The translations under genes were made by a program, and so were the position numbers. A stretch of 17,317 nucleotides of DNA, taken from a virus (lineage: Duplodnaviria; Heunggongvirae; Uroviricota; Caudoviricetes). Shown here piece after piece: positions 8,619 through 11,203 of this stretch. Location of the stretch: the IMG/VR virus record IMGVR_UViG_3300029745_000045; one strand, given 5' to 3'. Positions within the stretch are counted from its first letter, which is position 1. Every line of letters begins with the position of its first letter. Under the pieces are notes generated by a model, which was given only the letters and a program-made list of their open reading frames with translations, was not told where the DNA came from and did not search any database.

Positions 8619-9983
8619 ATGTGGAACCTTTTACGGCGAACCCGAAAAAACCAGAAATCAGGACGTGACGTAAGAGAGGCGGGCTGGACCAGCCTGTTTC
8701 AGGCGGTGGCTGAGCCCTTTTCCGGCGCCTGGCAGCAGGGCGTGAAAGCCGATCCTGAAGCCGTCCTCTCCTTTCATGCGGTGTTTGCATGTATTTCGCT
8801 GATATCCCAGGATATCGCCAAAATGCGGCTGCGTCTTATGCAGACGGATGCGCATGGGATACGCAGGGAAACGCGCCGGGGGGATATTGCCCGCCTCTGT
8901 CGTCGTCCCAACGCCCAGCAGAACCGCATCCAGTTTTTTGAACTGTGGCTGAACGCCAAACTGCGTCACGGCAATACGGTGGTGCTGAAAATCCGTAATG
9001 CCCGGGGGCAGATCAAAGAACTGCGTATTCTGGACTGGAGCCGGGTTGAACCTCTGGTGGCGGATGACGGCGAGGTGTTCTATCGCATTACACCGGACCG
9101 GAACTGCGGGATCACGGAGGCGGTGACGGTGCCTGCCAGGGAAGTGATCCACGACCGGTTTAACTGTTTTTTTCATCCGCTTGTGGGGCTGCCGCCGGTG
9201 TATGCTGCCGGGCTGGCGGCCACGCAGGGGCATCATATTCAGGCAAATTCAACGTCTTTTTTCAGAAATGGCGGCAGGCCGTCCGGGGTGATTGAGATCC
9301 CCGGCAGTATAACGGAAGAAAATGCGAAAAAACTGAAGAGCAACTGGGACAGCGGGTATACCGGCGAAAATGCGGGGAAAACGGCGATCCTGAGCAACGG
9401 GGCGAAATATAACCCCACGACGTTTTCACCGGTGGATGCGCAGACGGTGGAACAGCTGAAAATGACGGCTGAAATTGTCTGTTCGGTGTTCCGTGTCCCG
9501 GCCTACAAGATTGGCGTTGGCCAGCCGCCTTCCAGTGACAACGTGGAGGCGCTGGAGCAGCAGTATTATTCCCAGTGTCTGCAGACGCTGATTGAGTCCA
9601 TTGAGCTGTTACTGGATGAGGCGCTGGAAACAGGGGAAAACGAGAGCACGGAGTTTGATGTCACCACGCTGCTGAGAATGGACAGTGAGCGGCGCATGAA
9701 AACGCTGGGGGATGCGGTGAAAAATACGCTTCTCACGCCCAATGAGGCCCGTAAACGGGAGAACCTGCCGCCCCTGGCCGGCGGTGATGCACTGTATCTT
9801 CAGCAGCAGAACTACAGTCTGGAGGCGCTGTCCCGTCGTGATGCCCGTGAGGATCCGTTCGCGTCGACCGGGAAAACAGTTTCATCACAACTGCCTGACG
9901 GCGCATCTGACGGTAATAAGGCCATAAGCGAAACAGAGCGTGATGCGGTGAAGGCGATGTTCAGGGGGATACTGCGAAAATGA
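8619..9983 (+). CDS. Portal protein (HK97 family)
   Basis: 454 aa with portal-like motifs (…FFRNGGRPSGVIEIPGSITEENAKKLKSNWDSGYTGENAGKTAILSNGAKYNP…VFRVPAYKIGV). GGAG RBS 8 nt upstream of the ATG. Confidence 0.8.
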   Translation: MWNLLRRTRKNQKSGRDVREAGWTSLFQAVAEPFSGAWQQGVKADPEAVLSFHAVFACISLISQDIAKMRLRLMQTDAHGIRRETRRGDIARLCRRPNAQQNRIQFFELWLNAKLRHGNTVVLKIRNARGQIKELRILDWSRVEPLVADDGEVFYRITPDRNCGITEAVTVPAREVIHDRFNCFFHPLVGLPPVYAAGLAATQGHHIQANSTSFFRNGGRPSGVIEIPGSITEENAKKLKSNWDSGYTGENAGKTAILSNGAKYNPTTFSPVDAQTVEQLKMTAEIVCSVFRVPAYKIGVGQPPSSDNVEALEQQYYSQCLQTLIESIELLLDEALETGENESTEFDVTTLLRMDSERRMKTLGDAVKNTLLTPNEARKRENLPPLAGGDALYLQQQNYSLEALSRRDAREDPFASTGKTVSSQLPDGASDGNKAISETERDAVKAMFRGILRK

Positions 9984-11203
9984 CAGAGCGTGAACTGTCC
10001 ATTATCCGTGCGCTGGGTGAAGAATTCGCTGCGGTGCTGGCGGATTTACAGCGCACATTTGAGGGGAAGATTGCCTCGCAGGCACAAATGTTTGAAGAAA
10101 AACTGGCTTCCCTGTCTGTGGTATTACAGAAGTGCGTGACGGGCGATGATGTGCGTCCGATGCTTGAGCAGATGGTGAAGGAGGCTGTAAGCCATATTCC
10201 TGTTCCGCGTGATGGTCGTGACTACGATCCGGATGTTCTGCAGAAGGCGGTGAATGATGCGGTCGCAAATATTCCGCAGCCGGCGGACGGTAAAAGTCTC
10301 ACCCCGGATGATGTGCGTCCGATGCTTGAACAGATGGTGAAGGAGGCGGTAAGCCATATCCCTGTTCCGCGCGACGGTCGTGACTATGATCCCGATGTTC
10401 TGCAGAAGGCGGTGAATGATGCGGTCGCAAATATTCCGCAGCCAGCGGACGGTAAAAGTCTCACCCCGGATGATGTGCGTCCGATGCTTGAACAGATGGT
10501 GAAGGAGGCGGTAAGCCATATCCCTGCTCCGCGTGATGGTCGTGATTACGATCCGGAAGTACTGAAGCAGGCGGTGAATGATGCGGTTGCGAATATTCCG
10601 GTACCGACGGACGGCAAAAGTATTACCCCCGATGATGTGCGTCCGATGCTTGAGCAGATGGTGAAAGAGGCCGTAAGTCATATCCCTGCTCCGCGTGACG
10701 GTTGTGACTATGATCCGGATGTTCTGCGGAAGGCGGTTCTGGAGGCGGTGAATGCCCTGCCGGCTCCGCAGGACGGGCGTGATGCCACGGCACTGGAAAT
10801 ACTCCCTGCCATTGACGATCAAAAATCCTTTCCCCGGGGCACGTATGCCACACACCAGGGCGGACTCTGGCGGGCGTATGAAAAAACGCACGGGATGCGG
10901 GGATGGGAATGCCTGGTTGACGGGGTGGCGGATATTGACGTCAGCATGACGGGTGAACGGTTGTTCTCTGTGGTGGTCCGGCAGAGCAGTGGCCAGCGTA
11001 CGGAAAAAACATTTTCCCTGCCGGTGATGCTCTATCGCGGTGTGTTCAGAGCCGGTGAAACCTACCACCCCGGCGATACGGTGACGTGGGGGGGCTCGCT
11101 GTGGCACTGCAACAGTATGACCGAAGATAAACCCGGAGAAGCTCATTCATCAGCCTGGACCCTGGCTGCAAAACGTGGGCGGGATGCAGGAGGTGGAAAG
11201 TGA
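9980..11203 (+). CDS. Repeat-containing head-module protein of unknown function (about 3.7 tandem 54-aa repeats plus a distinct C-terminal domain)
   Basis: ATG overlaps the portal stop. Residues 56-~255 are tandem copies of DDVRPMLEQMVKEAVSHIP[VA]PRDGRDYDP[DE]VL[QK][KQ]AVNDAVANIP[QV]P[AT]DGKS[LI]TP. C-terminal ~150 aa are non-repetitive. Confidence 0.6.
   Translation: MTERELSIIRALGEEFAAVLADLQRTFEGKIASQAQMFEEKLASLSVVLQKCVTGDDVRPMLEQMVKEAVSHIPVPRDGRDYDPDVLQKAVNDAVANIPQPADGKSLTPDDVRPMLEQMVKEAVSHIPVPRDGRDYDPDVLQKAVNDAVANIPQPADGKSLTPDDVRPMLEQMVKEAVSHIPAPRDGRDYDPEVLKQAVNDAVANIPVPTDGKSITPDDVRPMLEQMVKEAVSHIPAPRDGCDYDPDVLRKAVLEAVNALPAPQDGRDATALEILPAIDDQKSFPRGTYATHQGGLWRAYEKTHGMRGWECLVDGVADIDVSMTGERLFSVVVRQSSGQRTEKTFSLPVMLYRGVFRAGETYHPGDTVTWGGSLWHCNSMTEDKPGEAHSSAWTLAAKRGRDAGGGK
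10145..10750 (+). repeat. Tandem 162-bp coding repeat, about 3.7 copies, near-identical at nucleotide level
   Basis: Copies begin at 10145, 10307, 10469 and 10631. Copies 1 and 2 differ by only a few mostly synonymous positions. Confidence 0.85.

Follow-up and report, generated by a model that had tools for sequence, protein, structure and literature searches.

Does the open reading frame (ORF) that follows the portal gene in the virus record IMGVR_UViG_3300029745_000045 (Caudoviricetes) encode a protein of its own, or is it the broken-off end of a longer portal protein, and where would such a protein sit? The stretch analysed here, called the window, is 17,317 nucleotides long and represents the late region of an Escherichia coli lambdoid siphovirus prophage of the Pankowvirus type, with 93–95% identity to phages 2851, YYZ-2008 and 1717 and to many phages carrying the Shiga toxin (Stx) variants Stx1a/Stx2c. 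The ORF, referred to below as X, spans 9980–11203 exactly as initially annotated. Comparison with its relatives indicates that X is an intact, separate structural gene and not a piece of the portal gene. The reading that we favour, at a rough probability of 0.45, is that this stand-alone, portal-coupled gene specifies a fibre, trimeric in form, whose stalk varies in length and whose end is of a glycan-binding type.

The portal junction and the status of X

The features that define the junction are as follows.

8619–9983, + strand: portal gene, 454 aa; PF04860, E=2.4e-81, positions 2–321 of 321; TIGR01537 portal_HK97, positions 2–343 of 343
9963–9969, + strand: AGGGGGA, a Shine-Dalgarno-like site of X that contains a run of five G residues (G5) at 9964–9968
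9980–9983, + strand: ATGA, where the start of X overlaps the portal stop, an arrangement of the translational-coupling type (sequence reading)
9980–11203, + strand: gene X, 407 aa, isoelectric point (pI) 4.9, with repeats of pI 4.5

The portal gene is complete without the downstream ORF, because both portal hidden Markov models (HMMs) are covered in full, and the exact 454-aa protein occurs on 61 contigs, where it is named phage portal protein. ORF 9980–11203 itself matched neither PF04860 nor TIGR01537. The length of the G tract determines whether the two reading frames are joined. With G5, the portal terminates at TGA 9981–9983, overlapping the ATG at 9980–9982, and two ORFs result, as in the window; with six G residues (G6), a single portal-fusion ORF of 859 aa is formed. 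An alignment of the junction showed this to be the sole difference that matters, with CAGGGGGATACTG representing the G5 form in the window and in loci L001 and L003, and phage 2851 carrying G6. Among the IMG/VR contigs, three reference loci and the window, G5 was present in 42 loci and G6 in 39, each on more than one flanking haplotype. On an identical flank of ~52 nt in complete E. coli genomes, exact matches to G6 were found in 752 records and to G5 in 366, and the two forms sometimes occur together in one complete genome. The site might be a phase-variable (homopolymer contingency) locus, but the tract is short (5–6 G).

A genome-wide scan with the C-terminal domain of X recovered 46 loci in other taxa, and the junction was readable in 44 of them (Enterobacterales, Pseudomonas, Paraburkholderia, Marinobacter, Rhizobiales, Caulobacterales and Sphingomonadales). 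The order major capsid protein (MCP)–portal–X is kept in these 44 loci, the head-tail adaptor Ad1 comes next wherever it is detectable, and X is a separate ORF in 44/44, in line with the initial annotation of a distinct head-module gene between the portal and connector genes. In nearly all of them the predicted start of X and the portal stop overlap or adjoin (ATGA; ATGnnTGA and related forms; TGATG); in the few exceptions the two are no more than about 35 nt apart. An AGAGGA- or AAGGAG-type site precedes X in most of the printed junctions. In Salmonella (L081), for example, a 479-aa portal and a 246-aa homologue of X overlap by 8 nt. The other Enterobacterales carry CAGAGGATT at the position of the G tract, and the E. 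coli G run aligns with their AGAGGA ribosome-binding site. Since the gene is separate in all 44 of these loci, the portal is complete and X is intact under selection, the fused G6 form is a derived E. coli allele, with the window keeping the ancestral, unfused arrangement.

Linkage and selection point in the same direction. A portal-profile scan of IMG/VR covered 72 portal relatives, the most distant at 48% identity; X lies directly downstream in 70 and was undetectable in the other two. Five of the 70 linked relatives are fused (four E. coli G6 alleles and one independent case, L199), and a further independent portal fusion, P0225, of 1237 aa, has about 25 repeats. On this sequence evidence X behaves as a near-obligate partner of this portal clade. 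The ratio of non-synonymous to synonymous substitution rates (dN/dS) is about 0.2 for both the N- and C-terminal parts of X in G5–G5, G5–G6 and G6–G6 pairs, X stays intact in G5 alleles, and the N-terminal helix segment is 33–55% identical across Enterobacterales.

The initial annotation treated the sequence as unfamiliar, whereas databases contain many copies, filed under the name of an 859-aa "portal protein", of which it makes up the C-terminal half, or as a "frameshifted" portal. The phrog_2271 profile ("portal protein", 859 positions) is matched by the portal ORF over positions 1–451 and by X over 455–859; phage 2851 has one portal coding sequence of 2580 nt (YP_009909244, 859 aa); RefSeq flags the E. 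coli arrangement identical to that of the window as a "frameshifted" portal pseudogene, and AP012540 has an annotated portal pseudogene at the equivalent locus. The "portal" label for X stems only from the fused alleles. A HMMER search of 1.84 billion representatives yielded 5,635 relatives at E≤1e-3, of which 657 reach E≤1e-30; they are mostly 250–700 aa long and have the conserved domain at the C-terminus, and cluster entries of the distant representatives are named only "hypothetical protein". The gene is present in 1,247 of 5,426 complete E. coli genomes, including those with Stx1- and Stx2-converting phages, with full-length matches in 1,237. A search of NCBIfam returned no family for ORF 9980–11203. 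A second misleading family label, "phage gp6-like head-tail connector protein", is attached by NCBI to homologues P0278–P0283 and P0068–P0099 (Salmonella, Klebsiella and Enterobacter), which lack a connector domain and match no NCBIfam model. The protein is therefore abundant but functionally uncharacterised and systematically mislabelled, with about 5,600 representative relatives across Proteobacteria whose usual labels ("portal protein", "frameshifted", "gp6-like connector") mislead.

The repeat array and the predicted architecture of the protein

Within X, the following parts were distinguished.

9986–10132, + strand: long N-terminal helix, aa 3–51, coiled-coil-like, a candidate oligomerisation or anchor segment (AlphaFold2 (AF2) model and heptad pattern read from the sequence)
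10145–10792, + strand: repeat array of four 162-bp units (Tandem Repeats Finder, unit register and identities, AF2 secondary structure)
10793–11200, + strand: conserved all-beta C-terminal domain, aa 272–407, with a CBM5/12-like fold
11048–11116, + strand: Pfam CBM_5_12 segment, aa 357–379, a PF02839 match below the Pfam threshold in the window allele
11088–11094, + strand: run of seven G residues (G7) at codons W-G-G of the C-terminal domain, another site prone to indels (sequence reading)

Tandem Repeats Finder reported a period of 162, 3.7 copies, 90% matches and a score of 955 at 10145–10737, in agreement with the copy number first proposed; a fourth unit, more diverged and 73–76% identical in DNA to the other three, carries the array on to 10792. 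In the protein, the array consists of four 54-aa units, that is, eight 27-aa modules (aa 56–271) that alternate between DDVRPMLEQMVKEAVSHIPVPRDGRDY and DPDVLQKAVNDAVANIPQPADGKSLTP. The division of each repeat into two related 27-aa halves sharing a V-x2-AV-x2-IP-x-P-x-DG motif was likewise confirmed, and each module corresponds to a helix of 13–17 aa followed by a 12-aa xIPxPxDGxx linker.

The near identity of two units also holds, with units 1 and 2 matching at 154/162 positions (95.1%) in DNA and being identical in protein, but their recent duplication was overstated. The two differ by 8 synonymous and 0 non-synonymous changes (dS about 0.26, dN 0). Because all eight differences are synonymous, a very recent duplication is not the explanation, and the protein identity points instead to purifying selection or to recombination between alleles. 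The predicted copy-number instability is borne out by E. coli relatives with 1 to 7 units. Their X proteins measure 245, 299, 353, 405/407, 461 and 569 aa, corresponding to 1, 2, 3, 4, 5 and 7 units, so that length changes in steps of 54 aa, and the complete genomes include forms of 1062 nt. The 4-unit form is found in 33 independently recovered IMG/VR and reference loci, with 407 aa in 22 and 405 aa in 11.

The G7 run marks the exact point at which three IMG/VR loci (L019, L039 and L069) lose frame, leaving a 379-aa product; it would be either a second mutational hot spot or a site of homopolymer sequencing error. On the minus strand, a 340-aa ORF (10124–11146) spans the repeat array and is probably a by-product of repeat and codon composition; the homology evidence for the 9980–11203 region all favours the + strand.

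The AF2 model of full-length X shows an N-terminal helix of 49 aa, eight helices of 13–17 aa separated by 12-aa linkers and a beta-rich C-terminus. Its confidence is low, with a predicted local distance difference test score (pLDDT) of 57 and a predicted template modelling score of 0.22, too uncertain for a fold search. The N-terminal helix (aa 3–51) is modelled at pLDDT 72–79 over aa 1–40 and about 51 over aa 41–50. Modelled alone, the C-terminal domain reaches a pLDDT of 79.6. The initial annotation rightly set this domain apart but did not recognise it; it contains a small three-stranded beta fold that superposes on solved chitin-binding domains, and the model indicates a CBM5/12 (chitin-binding-type) fold. 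Precomputed PF02839 matches exist on many relatives at 60–70% identity. Trp309 and Trp375 are invariant in the C-terminal domain, and Trp370 and Trp393 nearly so.

The linkers appear to be related to collagen-like sequence. Of 146 distant representatives, 67 have runs of at least four G-X-Y triplets, located in the repeat region, directly behind the C-terminal domain or in both places, and the E. coli xIPxPxDG(K/R) linker resembles what would be left of such segments after reduction to a minimum. Structurally, the neighbours comprise tail fibres and the binding domains of chitinases; those in BFVD are phage proteins labelled "collagen triple helix repeat" and "ChiC_BD". Other candidate families were discarded. 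The Pfam families TetR_C_35 and DUF4244 did not give a single significant stretch, their matches reflecting the composition of the repeats, and a sequence search of the PDB returned only designed helical-repeat proteins, again compositional, together with a weak All3316 match. For ORF 9980–11203, no Pfam or PHROG match was found to the head decoration families (Hoc-like Ig, gpD/SHP, Soc, Dec and pb10), and no HMM match to PF04233 (SPP1 gp7 / Mu gpF minor head protein), even though the gene position would fit the latter.

Possible location and role of the repeat protein

These features can be assembled into a working model of a fibre at the portal vertex. X would be translated by coupling to the portal gene, which suggests a low, portal-like copy number for the product. 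The coiled-coil N-terminal helix may anchor or oligomerise the protein at the portal vertex, the stalk would be built from the 27-aa helix-plus-Pro/Gly-linker modules, and the CBM5/12-type beta domain is predicted most likely to bind a glycan of the N-acetylglucosamine type. Stalk length could shift through unequal recombination between the 162-bp units, and in E. coli the G-rich ribosome-binding site appears to have gained one G in many alleles, resulting in in-frame fusion to the portal. Collagen-like sequence implies trimers, and we infer trimer formation because the relatives carry such sequence; location on the virion, glycan binding and a role in adsorption are put forward in the same conditional sense. 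The suggestion of the initial annotation that the protein could be a decoration or surface-exposed protein is plausible given its fibre-like architecture, and that architecture and the structural neighbours would favour an external fibre.

Several observations weigh against this model. The full-length prediction stands at a pLDDT of only 57. In the window allele, PF02839 scores 20.9 bits against a cut-off of 26.2 bits (gathering threshold). The window protein contains no run of at least four G-X-Y triplets, only single DGR/DGK triplets. The PDB sequence search found no solved homologue, and a literature search found no paper characterising the repeat protein. The C-terminal domain is 58–61% identical in Pseudomonas, compared with about 51% for the portal, and so evolves no faster than the portal or MCP; such slow evolution appears unlike that of typical host-range adhesins. 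In-frame joining to the portal C-terminus has at least three independent origins (E. coli G6, P0225 and L199). The portal C-terminus lies inside the capsid in solved portal structures, and phage 2851 is viable. Surface exposure is in tension with viable portal-fused alleles because the C-terminus to which X is joined is internal, and such fusions would fit an internal location better than an external fibre. Phages 2851 and phi330 both carry G6, that is, the portal fusion. Phage phi330 forms plaques at 10^9 PFU (plaque-forming units)/mL, and the virion mass-spectrometry maps in the same paper cover podophages only (PMC12502783); the phi330 record carries several extra frameshifts.

An alternative is that X lies inside the capsid, with its N-terminal helix as a tether to the crown or the C-terminal tail of the portal (non-covalent in G5 alleles, covalent in G6). 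X would in that case be an analogue, encoded in trans, of the P22 portal barrel or SPP1 gp7. It might then organise or retain the DNA end or act in release and ejection at infection, after which the CBM5/12-type domain could bind the chitin-like backbone of peptidoglycan. We regard this as possible if rather doubtful. The repeated in-frame fusions, some of them in infective phages, speak for it, as do the near-universal linkage and translational coupling to the portal, and the conservation of the C-terminal domain at the rate of a core head protein, which points to a conserved ligand or partner; many siphophages also encode a portal-bound internal minor head protein after the portal, SPP1 gp7 being an example. 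It is opposed by the architecture, since to our knowledge a collagen-like/coiled-coil build with a carbohydrate-binding end occurs only in external phage fibres, and by the tail-fibre and chitinase-domain neighbours. An acidic protein would furthermore be unexpected for an internal DNA-binding role, no homology to PF04233 or P22 gp1 was found, and fusions are mutationally easy at overlapping stop and start codons and may just be tolerated. A bolder version, which we consider unlikely, holds that the family is a core component, so far unrecognised, of a large class of HK97-like heads, a collagen/coiled-coil fibre with a CBM5/12 end on the inner (crown) face of the portal. Encoded in trans, it would function either as a portal barrel or core or as a pilot that is ejected and binds peptidoglycan, and the G5/G6 tract of E. 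coli would constitute a heritable switch between a non-covalent and a covalent tether. If this were true, many prophages of enterohaemorrhagic E. coli (EHEC) scored as "portal-defective" would be intact.

The remaining alternatives concern how X is read or whether its repeats are real. PGAP ("frameshifted") and the "pseudogene" annotation in GenBank imply that the portal gene proper encodes 859 aa, as in phage 2851, and that a 1-nt deletion in the window has truncated it and left ORF 9980–11203 as a non-functional remnant. The RefSeq and AP012540 pseudogene entries and the phrog_2271 profile that covers both ORFs agree with this reading, and the window prophage also appears to have a tail-module deletion. 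In the study by Asadulghani et al. (2009), Sp6, Sp9 and Sp12 were classed as having defective portals and Sp10 as having an intact one, without this frameshift being named as the reason, and Sp6 was still packaged and transferred (PMC2669165); these scores might be linked to the G5/G6 tract. A broken portal is nevertheless very improbable given the split arrangement in 44/44 other-taxa loci, where X starts at the portal stop or close to it, a 454-aa portal that spans the full portal HMMs, a downstream ORF that in G5 alleles is intact and has the same dN/dS as in G6, and the 366 complete-genome records with exact G5 on the flank of G6. A programmed −1 frameshift in G5 alleles, by slippage on AGG GGG AUA (rare codons) or on A_AAA_U at the stop, would yield the same portal–X fusion as in G6, as a minority product next to the plain portal. 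X indeed occupies the −1 frame with respect to the portal, and its frame is open from 9944; ribosomes slipping back one base on GGG would make exactly the G6 fusion sequence, and a Shine-Dalgarno-like element and rare codons surround the site. We consider it quite improbable, since there is no canonical X_XXY_YYZ heptamer at 9960–9983 and the portal/X frame offsets (start minus stop) vary by lineage (−1, −5, −11 and +2) without a G run; all relatives keep a start codon and most printed junctions a Shine-Dalgarno-like site, so that independent initiation is the conserved feature. Finally, repeats such as these near-identical 162-bp units are notorious for causing mis-assembly of short reads, but a collapsed or expanded array is scarcely credible here. 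The 4-unit form recurs in many independent assemblies and in complete E. coli genomes, beside discrete alleles of 1, 2, 3, 5 and 7 units, and the units differ pairwise at 8 to 43 positions, enough for unambiguous placement.

Taken as the ancestral and selected state, the split form changes how portal "defects" are scored when particle formation by EHEC prophages is judged. The variable stalk, the glycan-binding-type end and the obligate portal linkage of the putative fibre lead to a testable question, namely what occupies the portal vertex and on which side of the capsid wall.

Genomic context and comparison with known systems

The gene order in the window is TerL (4745–6406), a protease–MCP fusion (6470–8407), the portal gene, X and Ad1, followed by a head closure protein, a gp10-like protein, a tail terminator, a major tail protein with an immunoglobulin (Ig) domain and a tape measure protein. 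The junction downstream of X is defined by two features.

11200–11526, + strand: head-tail adaptor Ad1, gp6-like (PF05135, phrog_40 and TIGR01560)
11200–11203, + strand: GTGA, where the stop of X overlaps the start of Ad1 (sequence reading)

Upstream of the portal, the 645-aa ORF at 6470–8407 joins a Peptidase_S78 prohead protease (aa 48–152) to an HK97-type MCP (aa 386–635) through a coiled-coil-like linker, whereas in HK97 these functions lie downstream of the portal. A 73-aa ORF (8452–8673) overlaps the start of the portal gene; it is annotated as a hypothetical protein in RefSeq and phi330, and Salmonella L081 has a 63-aa ORF in the corresponding position. Two tandem copies (85% match) of a 27-nt unit, AAAAGGGGATACCGCGAAAAAAGCGGC, occupy 4628–4681 at the 3' end of ORF 4185–4748, upstream of TerL, and each unit holds the short inverted repeat CCGC...GCGG. 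On the tail side, the major tail protein (12737–13453) has a C-terminal Ig-like domain (Ig_3 / I-set; Hoc-like PHROGs), a candidate for another glycan- or surface-binding module on the same virion. The tape-measure ORF (14195–16306) encodes 703 aa, compared with about 1080 aa in L001 and L002 and 1082 aa in L081, and its last ~150 aa match the "tail assembly protein" families phrog_32 and phrog_4554 and not tape measure proteins. A lambda-J-like tail-tip ORF (MGKGGGKAHTPREAKDNLKSTQ...) starts near 16600 (16600–17317). It looks as if a deletion joined the tape measure gene to a gpI-like gene and removed the M/L/K-type genes; in view of this apparent deletion, the window prophage is probably tail-defective.

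The closest known counterpart of X is the second half of the "portal protein" of the Pankowvirus Stx phages (2851, BP-4795; phrog_2271), with about 95% DNA identity and the same synteny, residues 455–859 of the phrog_2271 profile being equivalent to X. Those alleles are G6 and consist of one ORF, whereas the window is G5 and has a 454-aa portal and a 407-aa protein, as in the other taxa examined; the name of the fusion carries no information on the function of its repeat half. The P22 portal barrel and SPP1 gp7 offer a parallel in that gene X directly follows the portal gene, is in some cases joined to the portal C-terminus and starts with a long helix. Searches revealed no homology to either of them, and the acidic, collagen-related and CBM-ended build is unlike both.

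T4 fibritin (wac) and the phi29 head fibre gp8.5, dispensable fibres that aid adsorption or assembly, serve as our working analogy for the favoured fibre model, with short trimeric coiled-coil segments and loops, an N-terminal virion anchor and a neck/head gene neighbourhood. The helix–linker periodicity of X, predicted by AF2 at low confidence, might recall these fibres, although no sequence or fold match to either was found, and X differs from fibritin in having no foldon, a CBM5/12-like end and, in its relatives, collagen-like linkers. A second resemblance is to SPP1 gp12, PRD1 P5, collagen-like tail fibres and the collectin-type layout, because relatives of X likewise alternate G-X-Y runs with helices and have a carbohydrate-binding-type end; compared with SPP1 gp12 and PRD1 P5, the window protein has only single DG(K/R) triplets in its linkers, and the portal-coupled position of its gene is different. 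The C-terminal domain, finally, resembles the chitin-binding domain (PF02839) of Serratia ChiB and Streptomyces griseus ChiC, with the version in the window embedded in a larger beta domain of ~136 aa.

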